Below, one piece after another: positions 39,948 through 62,279 of a stretch of DNA of 64,000 nucleotides; the first letter of the stretch is position 1, and every line of letters starts with the position of its first letter. Source of the DNA: Narcine bancroftii. Lineage: Eukaryota. Below the pieces are notes generated by a model, which saw only the letters and a list, made by a program, of their open reading frames with translations, searched no databases and was not told where the DNA came from. The position numbers were made by a program, and so were the translations under genes. The stretch spans positions 7,812,001 through 7,876,000 of the forward strand of contig NC_091474.1 of assembly GCF_036971445.1 (NCBI RefSeq), read 5' to 3'.

Positions 39948-40130
39948 TCATCCTATCCGGCGACAGCTTTTACAGGGTCCAACAAATAACTTTTCCCAAC
40001 AGAAATACAAGCTCGTGACTGTTTTCAGCTGCTCCCTGTTTTTGCCTCTTGCTTTTAGTTTTCTGTGCTTCTTTCTTCTTTTTTTGTGGTCTGAACGATG
40101 GACGTTACATCTCGTGTTTCTATACAATTG
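39948..40130 (-). CDS. c20orf204: C20orf204-like / IL-7-like cytokine, coding exon 5 (last)
   Basis: Acceptor TATCTTTCAG, 183 nt, phase 0. Encodes QLYRNTRCNVHRSDHKKRRKKHRKLKARGKNREQLKTVTSLYFCWEKLFVGPCKSCRRIG*. CWEKLF matches the recalled human C20orf204 C-terminus. Confidence 0.85.
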   Translation of the reverse strand, partial: QLYRNTRCNVHRSDHKKRRKKHRKLKARGKNREQLKTVTSLYFCWEKLFVGPCKSCRRIG

Positions 40131-40403
40131 CTGAAAGATAACCGAAAGATAAGCTGTTCAAAATTTTAATGTGCGTAGCAGGAACTTGGTTCACTTAAAG
40201 TTGGTCAAGAAAAGCTGATGGCCCAAGGGATTTGATTGCATTCACTGGACACCCATGAAAATACATTTGTTATATAGCATTAAATCTTTAATTGACAATG
40301 TAAAATTTAATCGTACTCCAGATTAATTTATGCAAAATGCACACAAATAAAGATCATGCATCCTACCCAGATGGCATTTAGTTTGATATATCACCTGTTA
40401 ATA

Positions 40404-40630
40404 GGAACATCGGAAGTAGGAACAGGAGTAGGCCAAAAATGGCCCATCGAGCCTGTTCCGTCATTCAATAAGATCATGGCTGATCTAATTTATGACCTAA
40501 CTCCACCTACCTGCCTTTTTCTCCCCATATCCCCTAATTCCTCTATCATGAAAAAAATGTATCTAACCGAATTTTAAATATGTCTAATGAAGCAGCCTCA
40601 ACCACTTCCCTGGATAGAGAATTCCAAACA
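40404..40630 (-). mobile_element. CR1 LINE 3' end
   Basis: GAAGTAGGAACAGGAGTAGGCC...CATTCAATAAGATCATGGCTGATC. Confidence 0.65.
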
Positions 40631-42094
40631 TTCAAGAGAGAATGCATTGTGTGAGGGCAGCTATTGTGATAATGTTGACAATAATCTTCCATATGTCATT
40701 ACGTACGATTATTCAGACAGATGACAAGTGATGGTGGTGTTACCTGATTTATAAACTGTAGAATGTGACAGCAATGTTCAAAAAAAATTATAAGCTAATT
40801 GATGGGGGGAACTTTTCAAACTAATAAACAAGGATAACACTTGGACAAGTGCGAAATGGGAGAAAAGAATAGATTTAGTAAGTGCGAACAATAGCTACCT
40901 GACATGACGAGATGGTCAATAAAAGGGAATGCAGCTGATAATGGTGGAAATGGAGTTTGATAAATTGTCGCATGACATTTTAGACATCGAGATTGAAGAC
41001 CGTGAAATAAAAGCATGGGTGGAAAATAAGAAACTGTAGCAGTTAAATTACATTTTCTAGGCGGTGTTTGATTTTCTTGATGATGTTTGATGAACTCAGG
41101 ACAAATAATCTAAATTTCAGATACATTTGATTTGGAAGCATGATTAACTGGGAGGATCACGTCCAGAGACATCAGTAACAGTGACAGGACACATTGGCAT
41201 AAGGCACTTCTGATCGGAGTAATCAGAACATGATGCAAAGATAAGTAATGCCTTACCCAAACATCTGAAACAACTCAGCAAAAAATTCTATCTAAAAGGG
41301 ATAGAAATTTTTCTGTTTGCAAATTAGAATGTTTCTATATAAAAAAACCTCCTGTCCCCAGGTGGCCACCTTTTGATGTATTTCATCTAAGTGCTGAGTG
41401 GAGGAGTGGCTTTTGAGCTGGGCCTGTTTCCAGGCTTTAATGTTGTGTCTGATGATTGTTCTCAGGCCTCACCTATTTATTTGGTTTGAGGCAGGTAACT
41501 CGCCTAGCATGGGAATTCCATTTTCAGATTCCTCCCTCACAAAACAGGTTTGAATTAGGGGTGGCGTCTGATCACAATGTCCATGGAACTGACACCACTG
41601 CTCTCTTTGGCCCTGGAAGTAGCTTCTTTGTTCATTTCAAACAAAACTAGTTGCGCCAGATTCATTGGCTGTTATGAGGACAACTGAAGCATTCACAATA
41701 GAAAGGCTGAACATCTGCCTAACTTATATTTACTGCAACACAGAGTAAGGCCATTTAGCCAAATGATCCCATATCATCTCCGAGAAGAGCAATCCTTTCA
41801 GTTCCATTCCTTTATTTCCCTGTAGCCCTGCTACTCATTCATTCTCTCATGCCATCAAACTATTGTCACTTTCCTACAGCAGGGGCAGTTTACCAATATA
41901 TCTTTAGGATATGGGAGAAAACATGAGGAACCAATGGAAGAATGTGCCATATGCTATGCAGACATCACCTCAGGTCTGCATCATACTAGGGTCCCTGGAG
42001 ATATGAGGCTGGAGGGCTAAATACTGAGGTACTATGCTGCCTGTAAAGTAAGCTCAACGGGCATTGCAGCTGCTTTCCTACAGTCCTTTATTTA

Positions 42095-42480
42095 AGAACA
42101 GGAGAAATAGGAGCAGGACTACGCCAACCGGACTGTGGGGTCTGCTCCGCCATTCAATTAGATCATGGCTGATCGGATGATAGGCTAATCTGCCTTTTCC
42201 TCTTATCCCTCAACTCCCCCAACTACCTATGTAAAAAAAATCTACCCTTGTCTTAAGTGGGAAAAGTATTGTCCAAAATCATCTCAGTCCAAAATCTATT
42301 ACTCTAAGTCTTGAGGCTTTGTCCCCTCATTGTAGTCTCCCCCACCAACTTGTGTACCTCTGTCTTATCTATGCCTTTCATAATTTTATACATTTCCACA
42401 AGATCCCCTTTTATCTTCCAAATTCCAGTGAGATCAGTCCCAAACAACCCAATCTCTCATTTGCTAACCCATACCCTAAC
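42095..42480 (-). mobile_element. CR1 LINE 3' end
   Basis: AAGAACAGGAGAAATAGGAGCAGG...CATTCAATTAGATCATGGCTGATC. Confidence 0.6.
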
Positions 42481-43229
42481 ACCTCTTTGAGATGACCACC
42501 CAAGAGACCTAAAGTAAGGCTGAAAATTTGGCAGAAGATTACACAGTTAATAGATTGGTTGTCAGTAATCCTGCTGTTAATCGATGTGCCCCTCTTCCTT
42601 TATGTGCCGAAGAAATGGATCTGATGGCTCTTAAGTATCAATTACTGCTAATATGTGAGTATTTTGTTTTGCTGCAAAACATGTTGATCAACGAAGCGGC
42701 TTGGAACTTGTCATTGTCATGTAATTTGGAACCAAAATGGACTTCATAGTTTTAGGGCATGGGGGATAGTGGTTGTAGTGACAGGGAAGGAATGTTATTC
42801 TGCTACATTCATGTACGCACCTGACATTCCAAACAATTGGTGCAAAGCAAATCAGCTAATAATTTAGGTGCATGAAGCAGTGCCTCATGGCAATGGCTAA
42901 CAGCCAAAAAGTTGCAACAAATTGGACCAAAGACAAGTTCTCATTCCCCACTGCAGTGTATTGGAAATTTAGGCTCAGTTTGCACTTTTCAAGTGGTTAT
43001 ACTTTGCAAAATAACCACATTCATAAAGGAAGGGTAGCATTTCTCTTCAATATCCTGACCAGAGATATTTTGTAGAAAATACATATATTTTGTTCACGGA
43101 TAGTGTGATGCCTGGAGGATGGTTGCGATGTTTAACTGGATTCTGAAAGCGTTTCTTTAAAGCTTTAGCTGGAGGTTTGGATGAAATCTAATGTCGTTAC
43201 ATTGTTTAAGAAAGATGTCAATAATCATT

Positions 43230-44250
43230 TTGAAAATTATAGACTGGTGAGCCTGACACCATGTTATTGGAAGATATTCTAAGAGACTGTATAAGGGATA
43301 GTCAAGGTGGCTTTGTGCATGGTTTGTCATGTCTAACTAATCTTGTAGAGATTTTCAAGGAGGCTACCAGGAAAGATGATGAAGGAAAGGCAGTGGATGC
43401 TGTCTCATGGTAAGCCTTTAATAAGGCCTTTGACAAGGATCTGCATGGGAGGTTGGTCAAGGAGGTTCAGCTGCTCAGTATTCAGGTGGAACATTGTATT
43501 ACAGTCATTGTACTGGTTGGTCTGCCTCTGACACTGTAACTCCTCCCCTCCAGGATTCCTGATAAAGGATGTATCGCCCAATGCCCTCCCTCAGTACTAC
43601 TTGGAACTGGGCTAACAGTATGTAAGAAATGGCTACGTTTATAGCGATTAAAGCCTTTTAATCTCGACTTCTGTCTGTCGGGTCTAATTGATAGCGCTAC
43701 AGGTAGTAAATTGGACTTGACATTGGCTTTGCGGGATAATCCAGAGAGTGGTGGTAGATGATTGCCTCTCTGACTGCAGGCCTGCGACTAGTGGTGTGCC
43801 TCAGTGATCAGTCCTCGATCCATATTGTATATATCTCATCGATCACACTAATAATGTGATATATTGGATCAGCAAATTTGCAGATGTGGGGGGGGGGGGG
43901 GGGGGGAGGTGCAGTGGACAGCGAGGAAGGCTTTCAAAGCTTGCAGAGGGATCTGGAGCAGCTAATAAAATGGCCTGTAAAATGACAGGTGGAATTTAAT
44001 GCAGACAAGTATGAGGTATTGCATTTTGGGAAGACACACCAGGGTAAGACTTGCATGGTAAACAGTAGGGCACTGTGGAGAAAGGTAGACAGAGGGAATA
44101 GATTTGTATACTTTCTTGAAAGTGGTATCACAGCTAGATAGGCTTATAAAGAGAGCTTTTGGCATGTTGGCCTTTATAAATCAGAATGTTGAGTATAGGA
44201 GCTGAGATGTTATGTTGAAGTTGTATCAAATATTGGTGAGGCCATGAAAC
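43230..44250 (+). mobile_element. CR1 LINE fragment containing a solo LTR (~43485-43701)
   Basis: AAGGCCTTTGACAAG (KAFDK), AGTGGTGTGCCTCAG (SGVPQ) and AGCAAATTTGCAGAT (SKFAD). The insert ends GCGCTACA. Confidence 0.75.
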
Positions 44251-44889
44251 TACTTAAGGAGGAGATTCAGAAGATGCCCTCATTCAGAATAACTAATACA
44301 GTATATGTCATCTGCTGGCTTACTGCCAAATTTGTTTTCTTTTTAAATTTGTGAATCACAGAACTACAAAATTAATTCTGCTTGAAAATTACACATTAGT
44401 GGGCCATGACGTATCTATTTATCCATGGGTAAATATTTTTCAAGAGCATCATTCCCAGGAGAAATGGGAGATGACCGTAGGATGGACGATTCATGAAAAA
44501 CATCTGTAGAATAGAGGGCGGTCGGGATATTAGGTGCTGGATGATAATTCAAACAGAAAATGTTGGGAATACTGAAAGTCTAAAACAAAACAAGAAACAC
44601 TCAACAGCTCAGGCAGCATCTGTGGAGGGAGAAAAAAAGAGGCAGTGTTTCAGGACTTCTATTGTAATTTAGATGGTTGTTTGCCATCAATATTATGGTG
44701 ACCAGTAGCTTTTCAGTCTTGGGTAAATGTACTGGGTTAAGGATGGCGGGTAGAGAAGGACGATTAGGTTTTCATGAAATGGATGAGAGTGAAAGAGTGA
44801 GAAATCCTGATGTATCAGAGGAACAGGGAAGTAGATGCTGATTATGTCAATAGAAGCATTGAAATGAAGTTTAGCGAAGATATATTTTG

Positions 44890-45040
44890 CAGAAGCTGAA
44901 ACATAAGATTCTGTTGTCACCGTGGTTAAGTGAAAAAGCACACAAATGCTGGAGAAACTCAGCAGGTCAAACAGGGCCTTTATGTAGCAAAGGTGAAGAT
45001 ACATCATCAACTTTTCGGGCTTGAGCCCTTCATCAAGGTG
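44890..45040 (-). mobile_element. Penelope-type pseudo-LTR module with hammerhead motif
   Basis: Minus strand reads CCTTGATGAAGGGCTCAAGCCCGAAAAGTTG...TGAGTTTCTCCAGCATTTGTGTG. Related modules at ~1-60, 1770-1885, 22135-22350, 29750-29865, 36600-36735, 52430-52520 and 60115-60420. Confidence 0.7.
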
Positions 45041-45911
45041 AGGAAGATAGGTTTTCTTCCTGTGTGAGCTCTAGAAGGGAGATGATAGGAGTTGGGAATT
45101 ATTGGAGAGATATTGAAATAGGGAATTTTTGCAAAATGCCCACTATATTTTAATGAAATTTCCTAATGACAATTTCACATGATCTTGATTTCTTTAAAAG
45201 TATAAATCATGATTATTACAATCATTTTTTTTTTTAACATTTAATATTTCCAATGACAAAAATGTAACATTTGGCATTGGAATGTATTGGTAGTGAATGG
45301 AACAAAAGGCATTATTCCTTGATATAGGGAATAACAAGAGCAGGAATAAAATATGCAATTGTTAAGGGTGAACAGGCAGGAAAATGATACATTGAAGGCA
45401 TTAGGTGAGAGAGAGAAGGTGAGTGGAAGAGGCACCGGAGGTGGTACGAAGATAAAAAGGAAAATCAACTCCCCCATTTCTCATGGGTGCATATTAATTG
45501 TTTGTAATGTTATCTTTCTCTGAGCCACCGAAGAGAAAATCCTTCAAAATATCAATGTCTCCTTGCAATCCCCATGAACCTTGAGAACTTATAAGTGGAT
45601 AGAGGGAGTTGGAGAGAATCAGCATCAGGCACAGGATTAGGATATGGGAAAGGGTGAAAGGAGATAGAAGGATCAAGATGATAACCTTAAGTAGGCCTTG
45701 GGTAAATGTGGAGCAGAGAGCACAATGCCACCTCTCTTTGAATGAAAAACTGCCAGGAACTTAATTACAGTGTACTTGAGATCAGACAGTTATAGTTTAG
45801 ACATGATAGGGAAATGGGATGAAAATAGACTTTGGGAAGAAAGTCCTGATTGTTCCAGGAGGAGAGTTCATTTTCAGGACTTTTAAAAGGTGATAGGCAA
45901 CTGTTACCAAC

Positions 45912-46064
45912 CTGGTGCACTTTGTTACAGTGACATTTTATCACAGATTCCATTTGGTTACAAATCTTGCACAAGGTTGAATGTTCGGGGTTCGTTGCAG
46001 CGCAGTTGACTTGACTTTTTAGGAATAGACTCATACAATAAATTGACTGAAGTATCCTTTGTTC
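45912..46064 (-). CDS. c20orf204: C20orf204-like / IL-7-like cytokine, coding exon 4
   Basis: Acceptor TGTGTTTTAG, donor CAG/GTTGGT, 153 nt, phase 0/0. Encodes EQRILQSIYCMSLFLKSQVNCAATNPEHSTLCKICNQMESVIKCHCNKVHQ (compare recalled human EHSILLSI...EAVMRRHCRTLRQ). Confidence 0.82.
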
Positions 46065-47177
46065 CTAAAACACAAAATATAGAAAACGCATTTAGTTTTT
46101 AAAAATGATTCTATTGCAGATTACTATTGACACAATTTTTAAAAAACAATTCCTTTACAGAATGTCAGCATGACAGGAAATTCCTGTGTCTCTAATTGCC
46201 ACAAGCTAAGGAGACAGGTTAAGAATCAACCAGAGACACACAGGAGATTGCAGCTGCTGGAATCTGAAGCAAAACATTTTTCTGGACGAACACAGTGCTG
46301 AGTAAACATCAGTAGGAGACCATTCTTTGTCTTGTACAGATGCTACTTGACTGGCTGAGTCCCTCCAGTTGATTGCGTTTGACTGAAGAATCAACCACAT
46401 TTGTAGGTCAGGGTCCTCCCTTGAAGGATAGAAATGAACCAGAAAGATTTATACAACTTTTTATGGTTCATCTTAGAGAGTATTCAAACTGAATTCCAAA
46501 CTGATTTAATATCCCAAGTTAAAATTCCTAACTACTGTGGTCAGATTTTAACTTGTGTTTCTGAATCAATGGTCCAGAGCTCTGTCTGCTGGTTGAATAA
46601 CTTAACCACTATACTACCGCACCAATGAAACTTTTCATTCCATTCTAACAACTCTTCTTTCTGGTTCAAGTTAATGGCACCAGTTTACCATAACCTTTTT
46701 CCTACCTATCCTGAGGCAGTCACTCTATGGGCAGTTTTAGCTTCTGACATGGACAGGCTTGAGCTGGATATGATGGAAAAATATAAACATTCAATCCTAG
46801 CATCAGACAGATCTCCCTCCATTTCTTAGATTGGTGATTAGATTCGAGACTGCAAACCCAATCTTCATCTCTGGGACTGTCGATCAATTACAGATGGCTG
46901 GAAACTGAATGAAACTCCAAATCGTGAAGAGTCATCAAGACGACTGAGACAAATTGAGAGTGTGGACAAAAGATATGTCAAAAACAGTCAAAATGTTATT
47001 GACTTTAGGAAATAAAAAAGCAAAAGGAACATGTGTTACTTAAACGGTGTTTGATGAAGAAGAATTGAATGTTAACATGTAGTCACAGCAAGCAGAAAGA
47101 AAAAAAAATCAATGAAACCATTTTCTAATTTGACAAATTAGAAATTCTTAATGCTGTACTTTTTTTTCCAACTGTAC

Positions 47178-47252
47178 CTTATTAGATTGACAACTAAAGA
47201 TTTTTGGATGTTTCAGCATTTCATAACTTTCAGAAATTCCTGTGTCATTTCT
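47178..47252 (-). CDS. c20orf204: C20orf204-like / IL-7-like cytokine, coding exon 3
   Basis: Acceptor CATCTTTTGCAG, donor AAG/GTACAG, 75 nt, phase 0/0. Encodes RNDTGISESYEMLKHPKIFSCQSNK. Confidence 0.8.
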
Positions 47253-47344
47253 CTGCAAAAGATGAAATGTTAAGTGTAAATTTGTTTTTTTTTAAATTAA
47301 ATTTGTATAATGTCATAATGTACAAAATATTTTTATGTACATAC

Positions 47345-47490
47345 TAGGACTCTTAATTCATCAAAAATTACTGCTTTATAATTCTCTAGGATGACACCAA
47401 TCTTGCACTTGTTCGCTTTACACTTGCATGTGACTGAAGTCATTTGGGTCAGCAGGAGGAGGAATACACTGGTCGCAAGCCTTGGGCAAA
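47345..47490 (-). CDS. c20orf204: C20orf204-like / IL-7-like cytokine, coding exon 2 (signal peptide + helix A)
   Basis: Acceptor TTACTTTTCTCTAG, donor CTA/GTATGT, 146 nt, phase 1/0. Encodes (V)CPRLATSVFLLLLTQMTSVTCKCKANKCKIGVILENYKAVIFDELRVL (compare recalled human CSVPDVLRHYRAIIFEDLQ). Confidence 0.85.
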
Positions 47491-47657
47491 CTAGAGAAAA
47501 GTAACACAAGAGGAAATAATCACTTTTGCACGATTAATGTTTTTTTTTCCAGTTTCACACATCATCAGCCAAGTTCACATGCAAATGAAGAAATGTCAGC
47601 ACAGAGGCAGCAAACTGGCACAATTTTGCTGGTACAAAGTGCTTCACCAAAATTAAT

Positions 47658-48000
47658 TACAGTAGTCCCCTCTTATCCATGGCCCCCCAGCAGATGCCTG
47701 AAACTGCAGAGAGCACCGAACCCTATATATGCGCTACTTAACATGATATGTTCTGTGAAAATGGGTGTCATGCGATGTGGACATTGTGCGATATATACTT
47801 AGCAAAGCTATACGTGATACTGTAGTGTACTGTAAACTTTATTTGTAAATAGAGATCAGTATGGGGACCCACATGGAGCTGTGGGCAGAGAGCAGGGCAG
47901 TGGGATCAGTGTGGGGACTGATACAGGACTGTGGGGAGAGTGCGAGGCAGTGGGATTAGTTGGGACTGATACAGGACTTTGGGGAGAGAGCAGGGCACTC
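47658..48000. mobile_element. Tigger-like DNA transposon end followed by a degenerate ~49-bp repeat
   Basis: TACAGTAGTCCCCTCTTATCC terminus. About 3 copies of GTGGGGAGAG..GGCAGTGGGAT....GGGACTGATACAGGAC at 47860-48000. Confidence 0.45.
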
Positions 48001-49589
48001 GGATGAGTTTCGGACCACGGTTGAGTGTGGTAACATGAAAAGAAAAACCACAGATAGGTGAGGCGGGGGGGGGGGGGGGGGGTGGGGGAATCCACTGTAT
48101 TCTTATTTAGCCATCCCTGCCCTATCCTTGGAACCGTTGATTTTTTTAAAAATTTTTTAGAGATATACAATTCCATTTTAAGTCTGGCAAAAGCTTACTA
48201 ATTTAAAGGGTCATTCTGCATCTTCTATCCTGTATTGAAAATGTGTAGCAGAAGGGCAAATTAAGATAAGTTTGCTCATTTGAAACTTAGGCTTTGCCTC
48301 TGTTTCCAGTAGGTCAGATGAGCCATGAAATCAGTCAATTAGAATAACTAGAATTGACTTGCTTACGTTTGGATAAGTATAGTTTTTCAACACTAAATGA
48401 AATTGTATGCGAAAATAAGAGTATAATGCCTATTCTCAGGAAAATTGTTCAAGAGAAAGAAATTGTTACTGAAAATGTTAGGCTAGATTAATCACATAAT
48501 CTATTCATTTAATTAACATATACATTAATCTAATGCAGATAAGGAAATTATGAGAATTTCAAAAATAATCATTTTGCAGATGATTTAACAATCAGGACCC
48601 TACTGTAAACTAGAAAAAAGCTGTTGTAAAATTTACTATTTAACAAAGGAAAAAGAATTAAGACACCAAAAGTTCTGAAACAACAATGACCTTATTTGGC
48701 ATTTACGCTTAATATTTTTGTTAGTAACACTTCATAAATGGGAGAGGCAGAATAAATCTGTCCAATTCCAAGCAAAGTGCACTATAAGACAGCTTCCCTA
48801 ATCTGCGGCTAAGCAGTAATACTTGACAAACAGGTAAATATTACTTTAAGTAGTTACCTTCCAGAAATCCCTGGAGGTTCAAAAATTTTAGACCATCTTT
48901 TGATTGTTTCAGTTGTCGTACATCCCGTACAATCTAGATGTGCAAATGGTTCATTATTTTTGTTCCGTTTAGAGAGCCTAGATTTCTCCCCACGGTTCAA
49001 ATTGTGCGTGTAACAGAGTTGTAACCTGAGTAAGAGACTCCAAAGAGTTTCTTGAGTCAGAATTAAGCCAAATGACTCAATTTCATTGAGAACTTCAAGA
49101 TGTGTTTGAAACATCATGCAAGTCATTGCATGCAAGTTGAAGATCAGTGCAGCCAGCAAGCCCAGAAATAGATTATGTGAGTTTAAATGATAATCATATG
49201 GAAAACCAGTTGTGTTTTTTTAAACATATGTGCATCTATCATAAAATTGAACTCGACAGAATTCCACTATCGGACAAGCATTTTTCTTGATTCCTTTGTG
49301 TGTCATCAGCCTGACTGACAGACATTGAAGCAAGAATTGCCATCTATGTCCTTTATTTTTACTTCCCAGAAAATCAAAAGTAAAATGCTACACAAAATCA
49401 GCAAGGATATATGAATTAAAGAGTCCTGCATAGGATACTGATTTGCTCCTGGGTGCACATGCCTAACTGCATTTCCATTGCTGTGAATATTTGTTACAGA
49501 ATTGTTGGGTCTCCAAACCCTTATTGCAGATTGTGTTTTTATTCATTCAAGGCATGTGAGCTTTAATCGATAATCTCAAATTGCTTGAG

Positions 49590-49900
49590 AAGCTGGTGGC
49601 GAGCTGCCATCTTGAGCCACTGGACGGTGTCCACTCCCTTTTGCAGTGCTTTATGCTCAGGGGTATTGGTGTCCCCATACTAGACCATGATGCAACTGGT
49701 CAACACTTTCCACCACGCCTCTGTCAAAATTTGCCGAGGTTTCCGTTGTCGGACCAAACCTCCACAAACTCCTGAGGATGTCAAGCCAGTATCGGGCTTT
49801 CTTCACAATCCCATTAGTGTGCTGGGTCCAGGAAAGATCCCGAGATAGTGACTCCCAAGAACAAATTTGCTCACCCTCTCCACCTCTGATCCATCAATGT
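49590..49900 (-). mobile_element. Rex-type LINE fragment
   Basis: GGGCTTTCTTCACAATC...GGGTCCAGGAAAGATCC matches Rex-like segments elsewhere in the window. Confidence 0.5.
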
Positions 49901-50434
49901 TGTTTGGGAGAGAGTTCGAGGATTTTGACCCAGTGGTCACAAGATTTCCAAAGCAGGATGGGGCTTAGGAACCAATCATAGCATTGAGCTGTTTTGACTT
50001 CTACTTAAATGAGGAGTCCACGCTCTGCTGTGTCTCGAGGCCACTTGTTTGTTGTGGTGGAGAGGTGTATGGTCATAAACACTTGTTTCGCCTCCCCTGT
50101 GTTTTCTCTGCTGTTGCTCTGGCTGCCATGGAGACTGCTCCCTTTGCGGTGCAACTCCCTTCCGTAGTTGCCATCAGTATTTAACACAACACTGTTGATA
50201 CAACTACCCTAATGATGCCTTGAATGAAGATTACATGAATTTAGCAATTTTGTAGGAGTTTTAAAGCTGGCATTCCTGCCCAAGGGGGTTGTGGAAGCTT
50301 CATAGCAAAGCCAAAAAGATTTTTTGATAACATGGGCATTGAAGGGAATTGAATTGGAAGGTAGCACTGAGGTACAAGATCAGCAATAGTTTTACTTTCC
50401 TCTTTCGGGCTTCAAGCTGAAACCATGGTTTCAT

Positions 50435-50680
50435 TTTTAAAATTTAGACATACAGTGCGATAACAGGCCATTTCATTCCACGGGACCCTGTTTCACCTAA
50501 TTTACACCTAGTTTCCCTACATCCTCAGTGCATTTTGAATGGTGGGAGGAAACCAGAGCCCCTGGGGAAAACCCACACAGACTCACGGAAGAATACACAA
50601 ACTTCTTACAGACAGCGTGGGATTCAAACCCCAGTCCCAATCACTGGCGCTGTGCTAACCGCTACACCAACCATGCCACT
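50435..50680 (-). mobile_element. V-SINE/HE1-like SINE
   Basis: GGGAGGAAACCAGAGCCCCTGGGGAAAACCCACACAGACTCACGGAAGAATACACAAACT, plus a B-box-like GGATTCAAACCC. Confidence 0.75.
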
Positions 50681-51764
50681 CTGTAGCGCGGCAAATGAAG
50701 AGGAAACAGTTTCTAGGATTCAGTCAGAAATTCAGTTGTACGGAGATCTGAGTGCGGAGTCATCTGCAGCTGAGTTTTATATCGGCATACTGAAGGATAT
50801 AGGTTGGATTAAAGTAACACAGGAGACAGCATGTGTTACGTTAACACTTCTTTCATCCCCACTGATGCTGCTCGACCCCAACAGGTTCTTCCAGCAGACT
50901 GACTGTTGCTTTTGGTTTGACTAAAGTTTCTTTCTTTAAAACCTTTTATCAATATGTATGTAAATAGTAGAAGTAACAGGATTTCACAGCAGTACAGTGT
51001 CTACCTTTTATTATCTGGACATGAATCCCAAGCCAATAAAATATCTATCTAAAAGTGAATACATTTTCTTTTGTTTATGAAATATTCAACAACCGTTATC
51101 TAATTAGATATTTAATTTGATGTTCATAACAGTTAAGTATGAGCACACAAATTACTGCTTTAATTGCACCTTAAAACGGACAACCACTTTTTTTTCCTCC
51201 AAATATCCTGAACCAAAATGCCTTCTATTTTGAAATAAAGTGATATTTTGAAATAAAGTGAAAAACCTGTAATAGACATTTAATTTTCTTACTATTTTCA
51301 ATTGGGCTTGACCATTATCTTATTAGCTCCATTCCTCAATCTTCAGATGGCGCGTTCCCTCCCTTCTATTGACTCCTGCATGCATTATTTCCTCACTCCT
51401 CCCGACCCCAATGCTGGCTACCAACCGCGTGATGTTTTATCTGCAAACTTGATAATGCTCAAAATTGCGTTAAAATAATAAAAAAGTTATGCTTTTTAAA
51501 TGAGATCCACAGAAAACTGGGATGAGCAGCAAGAGAAGATGGAATGAATGTTAGAAAAGAAAGAAATAAGAGAGGGAGCAGCAGAGAACGGTTGGAGGAA
51601 TGAGAGAAGGAAGATATTGTGTGTGTCCGTCCATGTGAGCATGTGAAGACATTAATCAGCATTTCTGAATAGTTTCTCTGTCCACCTCTCTCTCCCATAT
51701 TCTGCTCCTCTACCCCACATCTTCTCCTCCATCTCCTTTCTCACTCTTGCTTCACTTCCTCTGC

Positions 51765-52200
51765 GACTTTGACTTTGGCTTGGCTTCGCGGACGAAGATT
51801 TATGCAGGGGTAATGTCCACTTCAGCTGCAGGCTCGTTTGTGGCTGACAAGTCCGATGCGGGACAGGCAGACACGGTTGCAAGGGAAAATTGGTGGGTTG
51901 GGGTTGGGTGTTGGGTTTTTCCTCCTTTGTCTTTTGTCAGTGAGGTGGGCTCTGCGGTCTTCTTCAAAGGAGGTTGCTGCCCGCCGAACTGTGAGGCGCC
52001 AAGATGCACGGTTGGAGGCGAGATCAGCCCACTGGCGGTGGTCAATGTGGCAGGCACCAAGAGCTTTCTTTAGGCAGTCCTTGTACCTCTTCTTTGGTGC
52101 ACCTCTGTGGCCAGTGGAGAGCTCGCCATATAACACGATCTTGGGAAGGCGATGGTTCTCCATTCTGGAGACGTAACCTAACCAGCGCAGTTGGATCTTC
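51765..52200 (-). mobile_element. 5'-truncated RTE LINE (3' end)
   Basis: Encodes KIQLRWLGYVSRM...CNRVCLSRIGLVSHKRAC and carries the family tail. Confidence 0.9.
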
Positions 52201-53894
52201 TGTATTTGCTCTCCATCTTCCAACTTATTCTTCTGCCCCCTTCCTTCCTCATCACTGTCCCTCTGTGGCAGGCAAATATTGACCTGGCACTCACTACCAA
52301 GATAGGAGGAAGCCATGGGGTTTATTTGAATTCTGAGAGGATTGTTGTTGAGAAGGAATGTCTTGATCTGAGCCTGATTAGATGGGAGAGTCCAAGATTC
52401 AATCCAACGCTGTTATAGGAATACAGTAAAAACACAAAAATGTCGGAGGAACTCCGCAGGCCTCGCAGCATCCACAGGAAGTAAAGATATATAACTGACA
52501 CGGAGCCCTTCTTCAAAGTATTATGTACATCTGAAACCCAAGTCAAAAGTGCAGGGCAGGAGGCTATTGTAAAAACAAGAAAAGAAACCTGAATTCTGCT
52601 TTCTCATTAGTACACATGAAAATAACTTTAAACATCTACATTTATTATCTTATTAGTCGTGTGTGCTAATGGAAATTAATTCACAGTTGTAACTAAAAAT
52701 ATTTGAGCAAACACAATTAGTTGAAAAATACTCACCTTTCTTTCCTTCACACCTAAAATCCTTCTGCAAATAGGCAAGTTCATGGATCCAGCAACAGGTC
52801 TCACCTGCCACAGGACCTGAGAGAAGATTCTGGGGAATTTCACCAAGCCTCTCTGCCACATTGGACTCCACACAGAGTCCAGCGGATGTGCAGAGAGTCG
52901 ATGACTTCCGCATTCCCAAAAAATATTTAAACACATTCAGTGCACATAAACAGTGCTTCTTTGCTTGCTAAGAAATGCTAGACTCTATAAACCAAAAAAT
53001 GTGCAGTGGATTGTATGTAACTAAATAATGCCTGTAAAGCTTGAATCTGGATATGTTTTTCATAATGCTGTTACGAAGCCCAATTAATTATTTTGCTGAA
53101 TAATTTTGTTCATCCAACATTATGGTTTCTCTGTAACTAGAAAATAGCGTGATTATCTTATTTGGATAAGCCCAAATTACTTGGACAAAGTTCAAGTATT
53201 GGACAGTATAAAATTATTTATATAGCTGTATGAAATATACTTTTGTCAGAATAAGTTGCATGTTTTCCCACATGCAGGAAACAATTAAACAGTAGTTAGT
53301 ACATGATAAAGATGCAGAACACTTTAAGAAGACATACCGAGAGAACCGAATATGCTAACATTGCCACACACAAGTATCTTTTCCACCATTGAGAAAGATC
53401 CCCATTAAGTAACTTATGGAGTGGAACAAGAGTGGACTATTCATCCTTATAAATTTATTTCTGTCATTCAGTTGATCATTCCATTTAGTCACTGTTAGCT
53501 GGTTATACTTTCACAATAAAATTCTTCAAATTTCAGTTTTGTATTTTTCAATTAACCCAGCATTCTTTGCATTTCAAGAGTGTATTCCAGTTTCATTAAC
53601 AACAAGAAAAAGTGCTCCAGTTTGAAAGCTCTGCTCCCCTTGTTTTGAGTTGCTCCACTCATCTCCAATTGAATAAAAGACAATTTCAATCCAAGCAAAT
53701 ATCTACATCATTTAAAGCACCTCGGTTAAATCACTCTTCACCGGTCCAGACTCATGGAACTCAAACCAAATGTGTGTCCTGAATTTTAATCCTGGAATAA
53801 TTCTGGCAAGTTTGAAAACATGTGAATTTTCAAAATATGCATTGTTGGGTACACAAAGTGAGAGTAATAGTTCAGAAGGGGACCTGATCGAGAC

Positions 53895-54100
53895 TGAATA
53901 CTGATACAGTGTCGGCGATTGGGACCGGGGTTTGATTCCTGCACTGTCTGTAAGGAGTTTGTACGTTCTCCTTGTGTCTGCGTGGGTTTTCCTTGGAGGC
54001 TCTGGTTTCCTCCCATCCTTAAAAAGATACCAAGGTTGTTGGTCAATTGGATATAATTGGGGAGCAAGGGCTCATGGATGAAAGGGCCTGTATGTTGAAA
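53895..54100 (+). mobile_element. V-SINE/HE1-like SINE
   Basis: V core GGAGTTTGTACGTTCTCCTTGTGTCTGCGTGGGTTTTCC...GGTTTCCTCCCA. Confidence 0.75.
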
Positions 54101-55729
54101 AATGTTAAATTTATAACAAACATAACTTCCTCTATCTTCATATTCCAGTTTTGTTTAAATTGGAGATAATTATACTATTTTTGATTTTTTTTTTCCCACT
54201 TTATGTACTTGGCCACTTTTATCCTTTAAGTATTGGTGAGGCCTTTATTTTTCTGCAGCTCCTATTTCTTTACCATAAAAAATGTCTATATGCCTGGATC
54301 AAAATTGAATGGGTTATATAACATGCATGTATTTGTGTGTCCATATTACTATTTATTTTTAGGACATCTCCAGAATTTAACAGTACTTCCAAATTTACCA
54401 AGCACCTTTAGCAAGATAGCCTATACTTAATTCAAGCACCATCATTGTATGCAAATCCACTTGCTCTGATGGCCAACGTTAACTATTTGTTGTACCTGCT
54501 TTCAGTGACTAGTGCACATGAACAATCAAGTCCCAATGTGCATCCCAATTAAACCCCACAGAAATAATCGGCCACCTTTCTGCTTTACAGAATGAAATGG
54601 AAAGTTCTAATTCATCCATATTATACTACATTTGTGGTTTTTGCTAATTTAGTCTTGAAACTTCTGCATCTCTTGCAAAATTCATATATTCACCCAGTTG
54701 AACTCTCCTCAATCCTGCTCCCAACTCTTTTCATCTAAATCTATTGGCTTAGCTGTTGGTTTTCTCCTCTGTCACACGTTCACCCAGCTTCCTTTTAAAT
54801 ATTTTTATACCAAACATCGCGTCAACTCCCTGTGGTAATGCATTTCCCTCTTTCACCGCTCTTTGATTTCTTGGAGACTCTCTCATATTGACAGTCTCTA
54901 ATTGCACTCTTCTCCTTGAATGGAAACATTCCTTCTGCATCCAGTCCACTAAACCTGCTCATAGATCATCTCACATCCTGCTCAAGAAATGAGAACCAGT
55001 CTGTTCATCCTTTCCTCAGCCCTATCCCTTACATTTCTGGCGTCATCTTTGCAAATCTTTTCTGCACCCTCTCGAGTGCCTCTATATCTTTTTATCTTCT
55101 GATACTTTCCCATGCAGACTGATGTTTGGACTATGATCAACATGGCCTGCCCAACATATCTGACTGAATGCAATTAGGCCCTCAATGCTGAGGATGTGGC
55201 CTAGAAAAGCACTCTTGTGTTGGCTCCCTGAACCTTTCAATAAACGTGAAACCTTTCATTTTCTGGAGTGATAGGCAGCCCAGGTCTCAGAATCATTTAG
55301 GAGGTCAGGAATCACAGCTGCACAATACACCACAAGCTTTCTTCTGGGTCTAAGGCATTTATTTTCAAATATGCTTTTCCTCCATGAATCAAAAGCTCTG
55401 CTGGTGCTCTGATGCCATCATCCTTGACTCCCGAGATACGATGACCGGGCCAACATTTTCCATGGTCTGATCATGGAGAGTGCAGAAGATTCAAGGATGT
55501 GACCGTATAATTTTTGAAGACGAGCAGTATCCCTGCAGGGTCGCAGGGACATCCAGCCAAGAACCATTCAAAGTGGAGAAGATGCACTGGGGATGTTACT
55601 GAGAACATGCAGCCCAGAGCACACCAAGCCTGTGTAAGCAGCAGGAGTGATCCGCTTCACAATCTAACCATCTGCCCACCACATCCTGTCCACGTGTAGA
55701 GAAATCTGCAACTCTCGTGCGAGCTTTAG

Positions 55730-56930
55730 ACAAATGACGATCCACGTTATTGACATTGTACCAATAAACCAGCCAATGAAATACAACCAGCATCGACCGG
55801 AAATAAACAAAAATAGCGCTAGATACATTACAATAAAACAAGTGCAATTAAAAACCAAGCACAAACTGTTAAAAAGTTCTGATTTGACAATGCGAGGGCA
55901 GTCCCACTCAGCGCCGTAACATAGTCACAGATTCGTTTAGAAAATCCTTGAGCCGACTGTTGCGTGATCAAAGGTTTCTACAGCGTCTCCCCAATGGGAG
56001 AAGAGTGAACAGCACGTGATTCGGGTGTCTTGCATCTTTCCCTAGAGATATTTTCGACAGTAGGCAAATGGATTCCAATAATCCGTTGGGGCAGCTTTCA
56101 ATACCCGCTGGAGTGCCCTGCGATCTTGTGCAATACAATTCCCGTACCACCCCAAAATACCATATGTTAGCAGGCTCTCAAATGTACATCTATAGAAACC
56201 CAACTGTATCCTGGGACCGAGGTGGATCTTACTCATTCTCCTCAAAAGAAAGACCCTGTTGGGCCTATTTAATCAGAATTGAAGAATCGAAGGACCAAGT
56301 GAGATTTTCAGAGAGATGGATATTAAGGAATTTAAAGCTCGGTCAACGCTCCACCACCCATTGATGTAAATCGGGGTGTGAGTGTGACTTCTGGCATGCC
56401 TGAAGTCAACGACGTTCTCCTTGGTCTTCTGAGTGCCGAGTGTCAAGTTGTTATCAGCGCACCACAAGGCCAGATGCTGAACCTCATCCCTATAGGCCAT
56501 TTCATTGGCCCCTTTAATCAGGCCCACCACCGTGGAGACACCTACAAACTTGATAGTTAAATCTGTACTGTACATAGGAACACCGTCGGAAATAAAGAAG
56601 GAATACAAAAGGGGGCTCAACACTAAATCCTGGGGCATGCCGGTATTCAAGGAAAAGAAAATATTGCCCAGTGTAACAGATTGAGGTCTATTTGTTAGAA
56701 AGTCCAAAATCCAATGACCAGGGATGGGCTGAAACCATGCAGATGAAATTTTGTTAGAGAGGAGAACAGTGTTGAAAGCTGAGCTATTGTTGATGAGTGA
56801 CATTCTAACATAGGAGCTAGACCTGTCCAAATGAGACAAAGCAGAGTGAAGCACTGTCAAAATGGCATCCTTGGTTGACCTGTTAGTACGGTAGGCATGT
56901 TGATGCAATGGAAGCAAAGCATCTTCAATC
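55730..56930 (-). mobile_element. Rex1/Babar LINE RT region, degraded
   Basis: Encodes AYRTNRSTKDAI, WILDFLTNRPQSV, VLSPLLYS and AYRDEVQHLALWCADNNLTL. Confidence 0.85.
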
Positions 56931-58072
56931 CTGAGGGAATTACTAAAATGTCCTGTTATATTATGAAAACCAGAAGTGTATACAATAGTTTATCTGTACT
57001 TTTACCAAGATTCACTCCAGGTTTAGTTTTACTTCCCCAATGTTAAATACTTAGTTTCATACATGAGCACATTTTCTACATTTTTACTTTCTGTCCACAT
57101 TTTGCAACCACTATTTTCAATTTTGCTAACAAACATACAGAATTTATCAAGTAACTATTTCAAGTTTTCCAGTTCTTGACCAATACTTGGAAATAAAAAA
57201 TGGTAGCACTGTGTTTAGGTGACTGCCATATAACAGTTTTTAGGTATTAAAACACGGCATCCTTAGTTAAAAAATTTAGTTTGCAATGTGCCAAACTAGA
57301 CCTATTACCCACTAAACAGAAAGCAGAACTTACACGTAAGGATGTAGCTATACAATTGTTCAGCCTTACTTAAAAATGAGTGCAGAAGGGCCCTTCCTTG
57401 ATATACTCAGATAAACATAAATTGGAAAATTCTGTGTTAATTTAATGTATGTTAAAGATGTTAACTAAAAAAAAGTGATGACCATAAGACTCAGGATAAT
57501 ATTAAAAATAGAATCATTTTGTAATAGCTGGGTCGAACGGATTCTCTTCTGCTGAGGCTCTGCGATTGGTAGCTACAGAACCAATATCAGTGGCTTGGTG
57601 AACTGTCTCCATATTAAATGCTAACTGCCATGATAAAACTCTGCATGGATCTGTGAATTAACAAATATGTGAAGGATTTTTCTCTTGCTTAATAAATGTT
57701 AAGGACAATGTGCAGACTTGCACTACATAAAATGAACTGTAAAAGTGCACAGAAACTCCAGTTTATATTTCGAAATACAATGATGCAATTACATCCCTGT
57801 TAAAGGACAGTTGTGTGCTTGGCTTTGAATGTAGCATGAAATGTTGCAACGTTTAATGAACTAAATCTGAAATTTATAATTCTATATGATCTGGTTTCAA
57901 TTTGTCAGCAACAAGACTTCTAATTTTAAATAGGAAGACAAACATTTGAGATTATTGATTGACAGGCATTCCAGATCAAATTAATATTCAAGAAAATTAC
58001 ATTTCTTCAAAGAAAAAAAAAGCACAATTTCCAAAAGTCAAATGAGGCACAAAATGATATTCCTTTGCTTAC

Positions 58073-58082
58073 CATTTAGCAT
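58073..58082 (-). CDS. c20orf204: C20orf204-like / IL-7-like cytokine, candidate coding exon 1 (ATG CTA AAT G)
   Basis: Kozak-like ACCATGC and strong donor ATG/GTAAGC. The 10 coding nt end in phase 1, as exon 2 requires, giving MLNVCPRLAT... Confidence 0.6.
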
Positions 58083-58359
58083 GGTACACTGGATAATCCA
58101 CAATATTGTGAATCGAAGTAATTAATGATCATTGTCAAACTTCTTTGGTGCAACAGTTACAGCTCCGCAGATCCATGTACCTCTCCGAGTAAACACCGAT
58201 GTGATGCATTGTTTTGGCATTTAGATTAATCCTCTTTAGCTAACTTCATTATAAATCAGCTCTGGTTGCTGTTGTGCACTTTGTGCCATGACCAGAGAAA
58301 GAGACAGAAGTCACTGCTTACCCTCGATGTCATTCAGCTCAAGCTTCATTGACTTCAAC

Positions 58360-58402
58360 AAACTTCCGTGACGAGCTGCCAGACTTTCACTTTCGTCCAA
58401 TG
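58360..58402 (-). promoter_or_regulatory. Interferon-responsive promoter cluster (ISRE/IRF-E, ETS, CRE half-site, CCAAT)
   Basis: GAAAGTGAAAGT on - (58383-58394), CGGAAGT on - (58362-58368), TGACG (58369-58373) and CCAAT (58397-58401). No obvious TATA box. Confidence 0.65.
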
Positions 58403-58501
58403 AAAAAAATTGGCATCATGTTCTTCATGTTTTGTTCAGGCTTTGTTCAGATGATCTGCACAGCAATTAAAAAAAAACCCAACATATTTTTAATACATTA
58501 C

Positions 58502-59590
58502 AAGACCATAAGACATAGGAGGAGAAATAGGATATTCAGCCCATCGAGTCCACCCCACTATTCAATCATGAGCTAATCCACTTTCCCACTCAGCTGCACT
58601 GCTTGGGCTTCTCCCCATAACTTTTGATGCTGTGGCGAATTAGGAACCTATAAATCTCCATCTTAAATACTCCAAATGACCTGGCCTCCACAACCACCTG
58701 TGGCAACAAGTTCCACAGATTTACCATGCTTTGGATGAAGAAATTCCTATGCATTTCCATTCTTAGCAGATGCCCATCAATCCTGAAATTGAGCCCTCTT
58801 GTTCATCTCTCACCAGAGGAAACAAAATTTCTGCATTTACTCTGTGCCTTTCAACATTCAAAATGCTTCAATTAGATCCTCCACCTTCCCCCACCCCCCC
58901 TCCCCCCCCCCGCCCACAACTGCCTCATTTCATTCTCCTAAATTCCAACAAATGCAAGTCAAGAGCTATCAAACGCTCCTCATGTGATAGCCCTTTCATT
59001 TCCGGAATCATCCTTTGAACCCTTTCCCTTTCCTTAAATGAAGAGCCCAAAACTGCTCACAATTCTCCATGTGAGGTCTCACCAGTGCCTTATAGAATGT
59101 CATCACATTCCTGCTCTTAGATTCTATATCTTTTGAAATAAATGCCAACATTGTATTTGCCTTCTTCACCACATGCAAGTTTACCTTCAGTGTATCCTGC
59201 ACGAGATCTCCCACATCCCTTTGCGACTGGGTACTTTCATTTTTCTCCCCATTTAAAAAAAATAGTCTGCCCATTTTTTTTCCTACCAAAGTGCATGAAC
59301 GTATATTTTCCAAGATTATATTTCATTTGCCACTTCTCTGCCTAAGTCCTTCTGCAGGATCGGTGTTTCCTCTACACTACCCGCTCCTCCACCTACCTTC
59401 ATATCATCTGCAAACTTGACTGCAAAGCCATTTACACTAATCCTATTCTCTCACATTCCAATCAACTCCCCCGGATTCTACCTTTTCATTCCACAATTCA
59501 AATCACTAACGTACAACATAAAAAGAAGCAGCCCCCCCCCCAACACTGACCCCCAATGGAATAAACACCATTAGCAACTGGCAGCCAAAC
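58502..59590 (-). mobile_element. CR1 LINE 3' part
   Basis: AGACCATAAGACATAGGAG tail. Encodes FYKALVRPHMENCEQFW. Confidence 0.8.
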
Positions 59591-61702
59591 CAAATTAGGA
59601 TCCAATAGTATATCACTTTTAATAATTTTAGTGTCATGTTTTAAAAAATAAATATATATCAGATACAAGCAACTGATCAAAGAGCAACATCATTTTTATT
59701 TGATTATTTTTGAAAAATGTTAATTTTTGATAATTAGAGATGGTACAGGCATAGATTTGATCACCTGGTGCCTCCAGCTCCAAATGACCAAACCTAACCT
59801 CTGATACTGTCTGTGTAGGGGTTTGCACGTTCTCCCTTGATTGTATAAATCATCTTCCACATCACAATGAGGTGATCGGTGGTTTAATTGGAAGATTAAT
59901 TATCTTTAATGTAACGGTAGAATCCGGGGGAGTTGATTGGAATGTGAGAGAATAGGATGAGTGTAAATGGGTGATTTTGATGGTCTCAGGGAACAAAGGG
60001 ATCGGTTTCTGTGCACTATGTTGTATGAATTTTTGAAAATATTTTAATACATTATTGAAAGTAAAATATCATACATCACAAGGCTGAATTGAATGATCAT
60101 TAGGAAAAGGGCATGAAACACTAAAGTTTGCAGATCCTGTGATTGTAGTAAAATGGTGGATGAACTCAGCTGGTCTTGCAATGTCCATAAGAGGTAAAGC
60201 TATATTACAGATGTGTTGGGCCTTAGCTCTTCTTCAAGGAATAAGAACGAACAGGAAGGCGCAACAATAAAGACAGAAGGCTAGCCGAGGGGGGGGGGGG
60301 GGGGGGAAGAGCCCATTCCAACAAAAGGGGTTAATTGGATAAGGTGAAAATTGAAGAGATTTTGCAGTGGACCAACTGAGTTGTGTGAAACACAAAAGTC
60401 TGCAGATGCTGTGATAGAGGAATAGGGAGGATTCTGGCTCGTAGGAACACCCTGCAAATTGATACTATTCCTTTATGATCATTTAGTCCAAATCCTAGAA
60501 CTCACATCAGCAGAATTGTGGGAGTGCAGCACCCGATGGACTTATCAGTTCAAGAAGGCAGCTCAACAACATCTTCAGTAGGGTAATTAGGGGAGGCCCA
60601 GCAATACCACATTCAGAAAAAAAATGAATACATTAAAAGTTGCTACGCTGCAATGATTCACTCCCCAAACAAATCGGATTGGTTACTCATTTAAATCCGA
60701 TCTCCTTGGTTTTGACATTGATTTAGAGGTATTTTATACTTTCGTGCAATTATTTGAATTTTGGGTAGCTCGCAGTCAAAAGGAAAAGCTCACTCCTTAA
60801 AGTAATACAATCATTAAAGAGAAATGGGCTTATTATTATTAGCTACAAAGGGATAAAGAGGTAACATTGCCCAAGAGATACAGCACCAAAAATGATAAAG
60901 GGTCGGAGTCATTGTAATCAACTAAACACAGAATGGCTAAGAGTTACTTTACTGGCTCCAGGGAACGACCCAATTGTTCTCTGCGTTTGTCTTCAGATTT
61001 GTGCTCTCTTATATTAAGACCTTAGACCAAATACATGAAACATTTATCAAAGTTTGCAGATGACACAAGTGAGAAATATATATTAAAAAAACAAAGAGAA
61101 AACAACTCGGAACAAAAATGGCAAGGTCAAATATCTAACAAATTTAATGCAAAGATAAATTATTATATTGGGTAGAAATAATAAAGGACGGCAAGACAAA
61201 ATGGTCCAATTCGCATGAAGGTGTTGGGAATGTACATGCACAGATGACAGAATAAGAATTCCTTTATTCATTTGTGGGATGTAGGCCAACATGTATTAAT
61301 GCCTAACTGACCTTGAAGATGCGGTAGGTTGCTGTCTTGCACTGCTTTATAATCATTGATCTGTGTTGCACCTTCACTGGGTTGGCACCTCATGGTTCAG
61401 TTGTTTCTGCACTCAGCATGCCTTTCTGCACTTGAAAATGCTGTATACTCTCGAGTTACGCAGCTTCTGCAATTATTTGCTGACGGCAGATATCTAGCCA
61501 AGCTTCTCAATATTCCAATCATAGCTCACAGTGATTGCTCAGAGTGCAAGTAAGCTGAAAATTCACTGGAAATACTTTCACCAGTCATCATAATTCTTTA
61601 AAAGACTACTAAATGTATTTCAAGCTGCATCAAGAAATTATTCTGGATGTGTAGAGCTTAAGGAAAAATAGTTTGTTTTAAATGCAATCATTTACATTTA
61701 AA

Positions 61703-61708
61703 CTTTAT
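61703..61708 (-). terminator. Candidate PRPF6 polyadenylation signal
   Basis: AATAAA on - about 420 nt after the PRPF6 stop. Confidence 0.4.
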
Positions 61709-62126
61709 TAAAAAGTAAACACTCTTACATGTCCTTTGACAGATAAGAGAACTTTAAGAACTTGCTCGGACAACAAAACATCCAAATATTTCATACATTT
61801 TTGCTGTTTGCTTTGTTTCAGCAATACAATCAAGTGATATTTAACTTCCTATTTTAAGCTTCAACAGTTACTACACTAACCAGCATCAAGCCTTTAAATT
61901 ATCCACTGGTTAATAATAATGGAATAACTTTAAAAAAAAAGATATCGTACACAATTACACAAAATTTTAACCCAGCAGAGAATGTCACAGGAGTTGGAAT
62001 AATTCTCATGTAATTAAATTACACAGGGGCAGGAAGACAGAGCACAGATCTAGATTTCTGCACTGAAGTACTATAGACTTATCCAACTTAAAAAAAAATT
62101 AACACCAAATATCTTGAAACATCTAT

Positions 62127-62279
62127 TTAAAAGGTATTTTTTATTTGAGCAGCTACAAGCATAAGAATTTCTCCAATTTTCCTTTGCCAGTTTCTGATGT
62201 CTTTGGATACTTCACACCACAGCTCTCCATGTCTTGGTTCTGCATTTTCACACCGTCGTTTTACTTCTTCATGCTGTTC
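62127..62279 (-). CDS. prpf6: Pre-mRNA processing factor 6, last coding exon (rest of gene lies right of the window)
   Basis: Acceptor GTTTCATCCACAG. Encodes [50 protein letters not shown], matching the vertebrate PRPF6 C-terminus ([21 protein letters not shown]...IKNTF). Confidence 0.95.

Follow-up and report, generated by a model that had tools for sequence, protein, structure and literature searches.

The gene C20orf204 was found in a stretch of 64,000 nucleotides from the ray Narcine bancroftii (NCBI RefSeq assembly GCF_036971445.1, contig NC_091474.1, positions 7,812,001 to 7,876,000; hereafter the window), where it lies on the minus strand next to PRPF6. Going by features such as the predicted fold, C20orf204 very probably codes for a secreted class I cytokine, and we consider it likely that the protein belongs to the subfamily of interleukin-7 (IL-7) and TSLP. 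The reading that we favor is that C20orf204 encodes a secreted, N-glycosylated cytokine of the IL-7/TSLP type and is the twin of IL7 from the two rounds (2R) of early vertebrate genome doubling, located beside PRPF6; taken as a whole, this reading appears to us evenly poised. Papers are given by their PMC or bioRxiv number and are cited for the available part of their text.

Structure and conservation of the C20orf204 gene

The last coding exon of PRPF6, which corresponds to residues 892-940 of the human protein (E 1.8e-21), is the only part of that gene inside the window. A preliminary description of this DNA had placed a gene about 4 kb downstream of the PRPF6 stop codon on the same strand, and we counted 4,045 bases from that stop codon to the ATG at 58082. 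The same description took the gene to be C20orf204. This was confirmed, as the joined five-exon frame was 100% identical to the 188-residue record "uncharacterized protein C20orf204 homolog" of Narcine bancroftii and matched the proteins from turtle (E 2.5e-18) and platypus (E 6.3e-18). By sequence, the ray gene is an orthologue of C20orf204.

The coding region is divided over five exons of 10, 146, 75, 153, and 183 nucleotides (Table 1), with intron phases 1,0,0,0 and GT-AG ends. All four splice joints were seen in contigs from 4/4 sequencing runs of one study; the RNA status of these runs was guessed by the tool, no run being on record as RNA. The transcribed leader (58084-58348) contains seven upstream ATGs, and poly(A) signal hexamers are present at 39852, 39565, and 39529 in the region of exon 5. 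Mammalian IL7 likewise has upstream ATGs, and its first coding exon is also 10 bases long. Twelve bases at 58172 were missing from the contig of one run, representing either an allele or a minor splice form, and a copy of a long interspersed nuclear element (LINE)-like repeat in intron 1 showed a very high read depth, drawn from copies elsewhere. The encoded protein is basic, with 36 Lys and Arg residues versus 12 Asp and Glu residues, and it contains 12 cysteines besides the four conserved ones described below.

A search of 1.84 billion representative sequences returned 22 matches to C20orf204 at E ≤ 0.001, from which a low-complexity match of 690 residues was dropped. A profile search gave 130 matches to the family, 120 of them listed. 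Named members came from skate, bamboo shark, sturgeon, lungfish, amphibians, turtles, alligator, birds, platypus, and a marsupial. No teleost was named among the matches listed, and sturgeon was the sole representative of the ray-finned fishes. About 145 proteins were retrieved and 67 and 70 of them were used in two alignments, most truncated, intron-retaining, and long-extension models being left out. Cys32, Tyr41, and Cys123 were invariant in the 70-member alignment (70/70), as was the C-x8-Y spacing; Cys73 was found in 68, Trp173 in 67, and Cys172 in 66 members, and all four cysteines were kept in 64. A hydrophobic N-terminal stretch was present in 65/70 members, a sequon after helix A in 57/70, and a basic stretch before helix D in 65/70. 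These features were counted without a control, in an alignment in which 47/70 members were birds.

A tree of 18 chosen members roughly tracked the species tree, with its deepest forks left open. The exon ends of the ray gene at residues 52, 77, and 128 matched breaks in unspliced bird-like open reading frames (ORFs), giving three intron positions. From these sequence comparisons, the gene is older than the split between sharks and bony fish. In sequence, position after PRPF6, and intron positions, the ray gene agrees with C20orf204 of human and other jawed vertebrates, the product of LINC00176; it differs in its 12 extra cysteines and in that no SOX18 was seen downstream of it in the window. 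Lungfish isoforms X3 and X4 appear to skip exon 3, with loss of the sequon and of the conserved Cys73.

Predicted fold and probable kinship with IL-7 and TSLP

AlphaFold2 models of the ray protein (pLDDT 72.7) and the platypus protein (pLDDT 79.6) both contained four core helices. Helix A was one unbroken helix in both models according to the DSSP string, and helices B and C were short (18-20 residues). The models were compared with 48,161 solved chains in a fold search with VIA, from which the best 50 rows per list were taken. Class I cytokines filled the top 9 rows for the ray model and the top 11 rows for the platypus model with Z ≤ 10.2, although values below about 13 may, according to the tool, mean just a common arrangement in the case of helical bundles.

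The ray model aligned with mouse TSLP (Z 9.9, root mean square deviation (rmsd) 3.1, 105/109 residues aligned, 14% identity), IL-7 (Z 9.7, rmsd 3.4, 110/115 aligned, 14% identity), and human TSLP (Z 9.6, rmsd 3.5, 108/114 aligned, 16% identity). For the platypus model, the first two ranks were taken by mouse TSLP (Z 9.6, rmsd 3.4, 106 aligned) and IL-7 (Z 9.6, rmsd 3.4, 106/115 aligned, 17% identity), with human TSLP at Z 9.4. Over both models, the TSLP structures (PDB 4NN5, 4NN6, 5J11; PF15216) scored Z 9.4-9.9 and the IL-7 structures (PDB 3DI2, 3DI3; PF01415) mostly Z 9.5-9.7, 3DI3 reaching 8.1 on the platypus model. The remaining short-chain cytokines were found about 2 Z or more lower, with IL-15 at 7.5-7.7, IL-4 at 6.3, and IL-2 at 5.3-5.6; together with IL-31, IL-13, IL-3, and GM-CSF they did not exceed 7.7, versus 9.4-9.9 for IL-7 and TSLP. 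IL-9 was not in the best 50 rows of any list.

Residue registers were taken from the ends of the alignment ranges, assuming no gap. By the range starts, Cys32 and Tyr41 fall on Cys34 and Tyr43 of TSLP in both models, so that the spacing in helix A is that of TSLP. By the range ends, the Cys-Trp pair of helix D is in register with IL-7, Cys172 falling in 3/4 distinct alignments on IL-7 residue 141, which we take to be a cysteine. Trp173 coincides with Trp148 of TSLP in the ray model, and the platypus model shows an offset of two residues. In TSLP, Cys34 is bonded to Cys110, Trp148 is buried, residues 125-131 form a basic cassette, and a kinked helix A is common with IL-7 (PMC5382266). A basic C-D loop is likewise found in C20orf204.

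Kinship with IL-7 and TSLP is favored because nearly their whole chain was aligned, mostly at higher identity than the long-chain cytokines, and because the other short-chain cytokines scored about 2 Z or more lower. The preliminary description had pointed to IL-7 in particular. The models bear this out insofar as IL-7 and TSLP were the best short-chain matches; IL-7 was, however, not singled out, since TSLP and the long-chain cytokines tied with it.

A number of results weigh against a place in the IL-7/TSLP subfamily, in addition to the modest Z values. Within 1 Z of IL-7 and TSLP were CLCF1 (Z 10.1 for the ray model, rmsd 3.7, 143 aligned; 9.5 for the platypus model), IL-11 (9.8, rmsd 3.8, 139 aligned; 9.4), IL-6 (9.3, rmsd 3.5, 130 aligned; 9.1), and CNTF (9.2; 8.8), all of them long-chain. 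This tie recurred in all four VIA searches, and in one of them IL-11, CLCF1, CNTF, and leptin ranked at or above TSLP and IL-7. Foldseek gave no match at E ≤ 0.001 for either model; its lists were headed by IL-11 and IL-6, IL-7 taking second and fourth place. A structure search of the ESM Atlas with its own low-confidence model returned nothing with TM > 0.5.

Nor did any sequence method connect the C20orf204 family to IL-7. No IL7 or TSLP protein was present among the 22 search matches (16 checked by name) or the best 120 of the 130 profile matches, and sequence searches of the PDB with the ray protein, two alignments, and three orthologues found no cytokine at E ≤ 10. The Pfam family TSLP matched 5/70 members (best E 0.085) and IL7 matched 1/70 (E 0.17), which is below the curated cut-off. 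These matches were set aside as noise, as GATase_6 matched 15/70 members (25 of 31 families listed). Pfam applied to the single exons and the whole ray protein gave no cytokine family, and NCBIfam gave none. Since the similarity of IL-7 and TSLP to each other is itself marginal (PMC5382266), the Pfam result makes it less likely that the protein is IL-7 or is TSLP, but not that it works like them. By ESM features, the IL-10 family came first for both the ray and the platypus protein, with IL-7 at rank 10 in the ray list and absent from the platypus list. In the ray protein Trp173 is followed by Glu-Lys, whereas TSLP has Arg-Arg after its Trp and binds TSLPR via Arg149, Arg150, and Arg153 (PMC5382266).

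The intron phases 1,0,0,0 were also considered as evidence for IL-7 and set aside. IL-6 genes have the same layout, with five exons and an intron in the signal peptide (bioRxiv 10.64898/2026.04.02.716188), and the exons of zebrafish il7 are described as all phase 0 (PMC6936713). Nothing on IL7 gene structure was found in the available text of PMC12937949 and PMC8674869.

Chromosomal setting of C20orf204 and other features of the window

In human the order of genes is STMN3...TPD52L2...PRPF6, C20orf204, SOX18, TCEA2, RGS19, OPRL1...MYT1, according to a table of a patient duplication (PMC6026315). This agrees with the gene set that the preliminary description had named around PRPF6 and C20orf204. 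Human chromosomes 20 and 8q are arms of one 2R paralogon with the pairs STMN3/STMN2, OPRL1/OPRK1, RGS19/RGS20, MYT1/ST18, and others (PMC2865548, Table S2). The opioid-receptor paralogon, as it is termed, comprises human 20, 8q, 1p, and 6q and chicken 20, 2, 23, and 3 (PMC2865548), and has been extended to lampreys (PMC7406891). The claim that genes of 20q13 have paralogues on 8q is thus in print for STMN, OPR, RGS, and MYT1. We assume TPD52L2/TPD52, SOX18/SOX17, and TCEA2/TCEA1 to be further paralogue pairs of the two arms. IL7 itself presumably adjoins STMN2 on 8q; our literature search found no paper on IL7 with STMN2 at 8q21 and none on synteny of PRPF6 with IL-7.

IL7 adjoins ZC2HC1A from sharks to humans, and zebrafish il7 is located on chromosome 24 (PMC6936713), which carries the 8q-type genes EYA1, MYBL1, and NCOA2 (PMC2865548, Table S2). 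C20orf204 is not beside ZC2HC1A; its human locus is found between STMN3 and RGS19/OPRL1/MYT1. From the published positions in human and zebrafish, C20orf204 and IL7 lie in paralogous arms of one paralogon. A well-supported separate IL-7 clade has been described in cartilaginous fishes (PMC6238376), and the lineages of C20orf204 and IL-7 are accordingly both present there, in separate trees with no cyclostome or invertebrate outgroup.

The printed synteny makes it plausible that C20orf204 is an ohnologue of IL7 from whole-genome duplication, with the scales about level between this origin and others. The argument holds for the paralogon and not for microsynteny, because in human the 8q paralogues of RGS19, OPRL1, and MYT1 (OPRK1, RGS20, and ST18) map to 53-55 Mb and STMN2 maps to 80.7 Mb, a distance of about 26 Mb (PMC2865548). 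The 27 families analyzed in the available part of that paper exclude IL7, PRPF6, and C20orf204, and no directly flanking gene pair was found to be common to the IL7 and C20orf204 loci. As the paralogon is large, location within it by chance is not remote (about 1 in 10 by our own estimate). We take the genes for TSLP and the long-chain cytokines to lie outside the 20/8q paralogon. IL7 would then be the sole structurally tied candidate that can be placed in it, and this conjunction is the real strength of the ohnologue hypothesis.

STMN3, TPD52L2, SOX18, TCEA2, and OPRL1 were not recognized in the window by ORF listing and a short motif scan. No SOX18 or TCEA2 was seen in the 40 kb downstream of C20orf204; the neighbor on that side is an Rh gene, which counts against the ohnologue hypothesis. 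The Rh ORF matched RhCG and RhAG about equally well (E about 1e-124 each) and is probably of the Rhp2 type of non-mammalian vertebrates. RHCE/RHD (1p36) and RHAG (6p12) presumably belong to, or adjoin, further arms of this paralogon, and the Rh gene may itself be a marker of it. The turtle orthologue of C20orf204 carries the source label TCEA2, perhaps a name transferred from a neighboring gene, which is a weak hint that C20orf204 and TCEA2 are neighbors in turtles. Near the CpG-rich stretch at the left end, a gene probably runs out of the window and would be the next synteny marker.

Table 1. Features of the 64,000-nucleotide window (position 1 is its first nucleotide).
Feature	Positions	Strand	Basis or remark
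PRPF6, last coding exon; stop codon 62129-62127	62127..62279	-	Match to human PRPF6; acceptor AG and stop codon located
C20orf204, ATG to end of stop codon	58082 to 39948	-	Five coding exons
C20orf204 exon 1: 5' leader containing seven upstream ATGs; first 10 bases of the coding region at 58082-58073; donor in phase 1	58073..58348	-	Contig pieces to 58348; splice 58073 to 47490 in 4/4 runs
C20orf204 exon 2, 146 nucleotides: hydrophobic stretch resembling a signal peptide; Cys32 and, in helix A, Tyr41 (both invariant)	47345..47490	-	Contigs, conservation, model helix 34-56
C20orf204 exon 3, 75 nucleotides: A-B loop, N-glycosylation sequon Asn54, conserved Cys73	47178..47252	-	Contigs, frame, alignment
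C20orf204 exon 4, 153 nucleotides: helices B and C, invariant Cys123	45912..46064	-	Contigs, model, alignment
C20orf204 exon 5: coding part 40130-39948 with the basic C-D loop and helix D (Cys172-Trp173); 3' untranslated region continues past 39700	39700..40130	-	Contigs, frame
Rh-family ammonium transporter ORF, intronless, 531 residues; next recognizable gene downstream, where human has SOX18	10017..11612	+	Pfam Ammonium_transp, E 3.7e-72
CpG-rich, promoter-like stretch with strong exon candidate 6464-6410 (minus strand)	6150-6750
Short CpG-rich stretch, possible promoter	21700-21920		Words resembling CRE, ETS, and GC-box motifs; no recognized gene
Tandem array, 91 bp, 20.9 copies	3955-5857
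Tandem array, 18 bp, 7.2 copies	20994-21122
Tandem array, 23 bp, 28.8 copies	24727-25388
Gap of 200 N	7971-8170
Copies of one LINE-like element, mostly truncated 3' ends	26600-28550, 38960-39360, 51760-52200, 1200-1550		Reverse-transcriptase-like frames

Alternative explanations and possible role of C20orf204

The alternative that survives best is that the product is a cytokine of the IL-7/TSLP family and the gene no ohnologue of IL7; C20orf204 would then be a sister or parent of TSLP, or a copy whose move to PRPF6 had nothing to do with the genome doublings. TSLP is encoded by a four-exon gene on a different chromosome. In both models it scores as high as IL-7 or slightly higher, it has exactly the Cys/Tyr spacing of helix A and, at residues 125-131, a basic cassette like that of the C-D loop, and its weak Pfam matches cover the whole profile. 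The chance of location in a paralogon of this size, as estimated above, also fits such an origin. However, the gene predates the split between sharks and bony fish and sits in the paralogon of IL7, and its residues in helix D are unlike the receptor-binding arginines of TSLP. C20orf204 is present in sharks, rays, and sturgeon, whereas TSLP was not found in fish according to the available text of two papers (PMC4690019, PMC9138301). We therefore regard this explanation as possible but unlikely.

We find it rather unlikely that the protein is a long-chain class I cytokine of the IL-6/IL-11/CLCF1/CNTF, G-CSF, leptin, or growth-hormone type, which would use a gp130-like or homodimeric receptor and resemble IL-7 in a generic way only. 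The long-chain cytokines have longer helices than the short B and C helices of the models, their identity was mostly lower (3-12% for CLCF1, IL-11, IL-6, and CNTF versus 11-17% for IL-7 and TSLP), as was the coverage of the target (about 75-85% versus 92-97%), and their genes presumably lie outside the paralogon. Their tied Z at the top of four VIA searches, their lead in both Foldseek lists, and the five exons and signal-peptide intron that the gene has in common with IL-6 argue in the other direction, and human C20orf204 has been aligned to somatotropin (PMC9992864).

A divergent class II cytokine of the IL-10/IL-20/IL-22/IL-26 or interferon-lambda type is quite improbable. The ESM features did rank clusters of IL-26, IL-22, and IL-20 first with scores of 0.90-0.93, but the scores spanned just 0.89-0.93 across many cytokine families. 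Exon 4 has 153 nucleotides, a size known from exon 3 of IL-10-family genes, while the first intron of C20orf204 is in phase 1. Both models have four core helices, and an IL-10-type fold was not the best structural match in the VIA searches: IL-20 (Z 6.0-6.9) and IL-22 (Z 5.6-7.5) were 2-4 Z below TSLP and IL-7, with IL-20, IL-22, and the IL-10 monomer at 5.6-7.5 overall.

The human protein has been published just as a nucleolar protein of liver cancer cells, and it is highly improbable that this describes the family, i.e., that C20orf204 is no secreted ligand but an arginine-rich nucleolar protein binding nucleolin and rRNA. In the one experimental paper the protein was mainly nucleolar, which speaks against secretion, with nuclear staining in 14/20 tumors, pull-down of nucleolin, and increased rRNA on overexpression (PMC7969625); the basic composition of the ray protein fits this. 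The same paper also reports partial glycosylation and partial staining of the endoplasmic reticulum, and the terms "signal peptide," "secret," and "cytokine" are absent from its available text. The conserved hydrophobic N-terminus, the sequon, and the four cysteines (64/70) are secretory features. Finally, that the gene is the ray's own IL7, relocated next to PRPF6, would suit the structural tie with IL-7 but is barely credible, as it groups with C20orf204 of bony vertebrates, whose IL7 adjoins ZC2HC1A, and a true IL-7 clade exists in cartilaginous fishes (PMC6238376).

If C20orf204 is the IL-7/TSLP-type twin of IL7 favored here, it would most likely share with IL7 an origin in the genome doublings of early vertebrates and have kept its place next to PRPF6, within the chromosome-20 arm of the opioid-receptor paralogon. 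The protein would enter the secretory pathway and be glycosylated at Asn54, and its four-helix bundle may be held by the putative disulfides Cys32-Cys123 and Cys73-Cys172. By analogy with IL-7 and TSLP, the face formed by helices A and C could bind IL-7R-alpha, helix D and the A-B loop could bind a second chain, gamma-c or CRLF2, and JAK-STAT5 signaling in lymphoid cells would result. For the basic C-D loop, binding of matrix glycans or cleavage is conceivable, in line with a proposal made for TSLP (PMC5382266), and the upstream ATGs could hold translation low, as in IL7.

A cytokine-like fold of C20orf204 is not new, because its remote homologues were already stated to be mostly interleukins and growth hormones (PMC9992864). 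No paper calling C20orf204 IL-7-like or TSLP-like or an ohnologue of IL7 was found in a full-text search, outside which most subscription papers fall. In zebrafish, deficiencies of il7r and crlf2 are worse than loss of il7, and an unidentified ligand has been predicted (PMC6936713). C20orf204 is a candidate for this IL-7R/CRLF2 ligand of fish, provided that teleosts have it. More speculatively, and with little confidence on our part, C20orf204 could be both the whole-genome duplication twin of IL7 and the ancestral ligand of IL-7R-alpha/CRLF2, a "fish TSLP," in which case TSLP would have branched off later and changed its location, and humans would still carry an unrecognized third ligand of IL-7R-alpha, filed as the product of a liver-cancer long non-coding RNA.

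Two ligands are known for IL-7R-alpha, itself a drug target in allergy, autoimmunity, and leukemia. If a third relative has indeed persisted from sharks to humans, the human set of cytokines would grow by one, and the liver-cancer data on C20orf204 would appear in a different light. If the ohnologue link holds, the split of the IL-7 family would date to the early vertebrate genome doublings.

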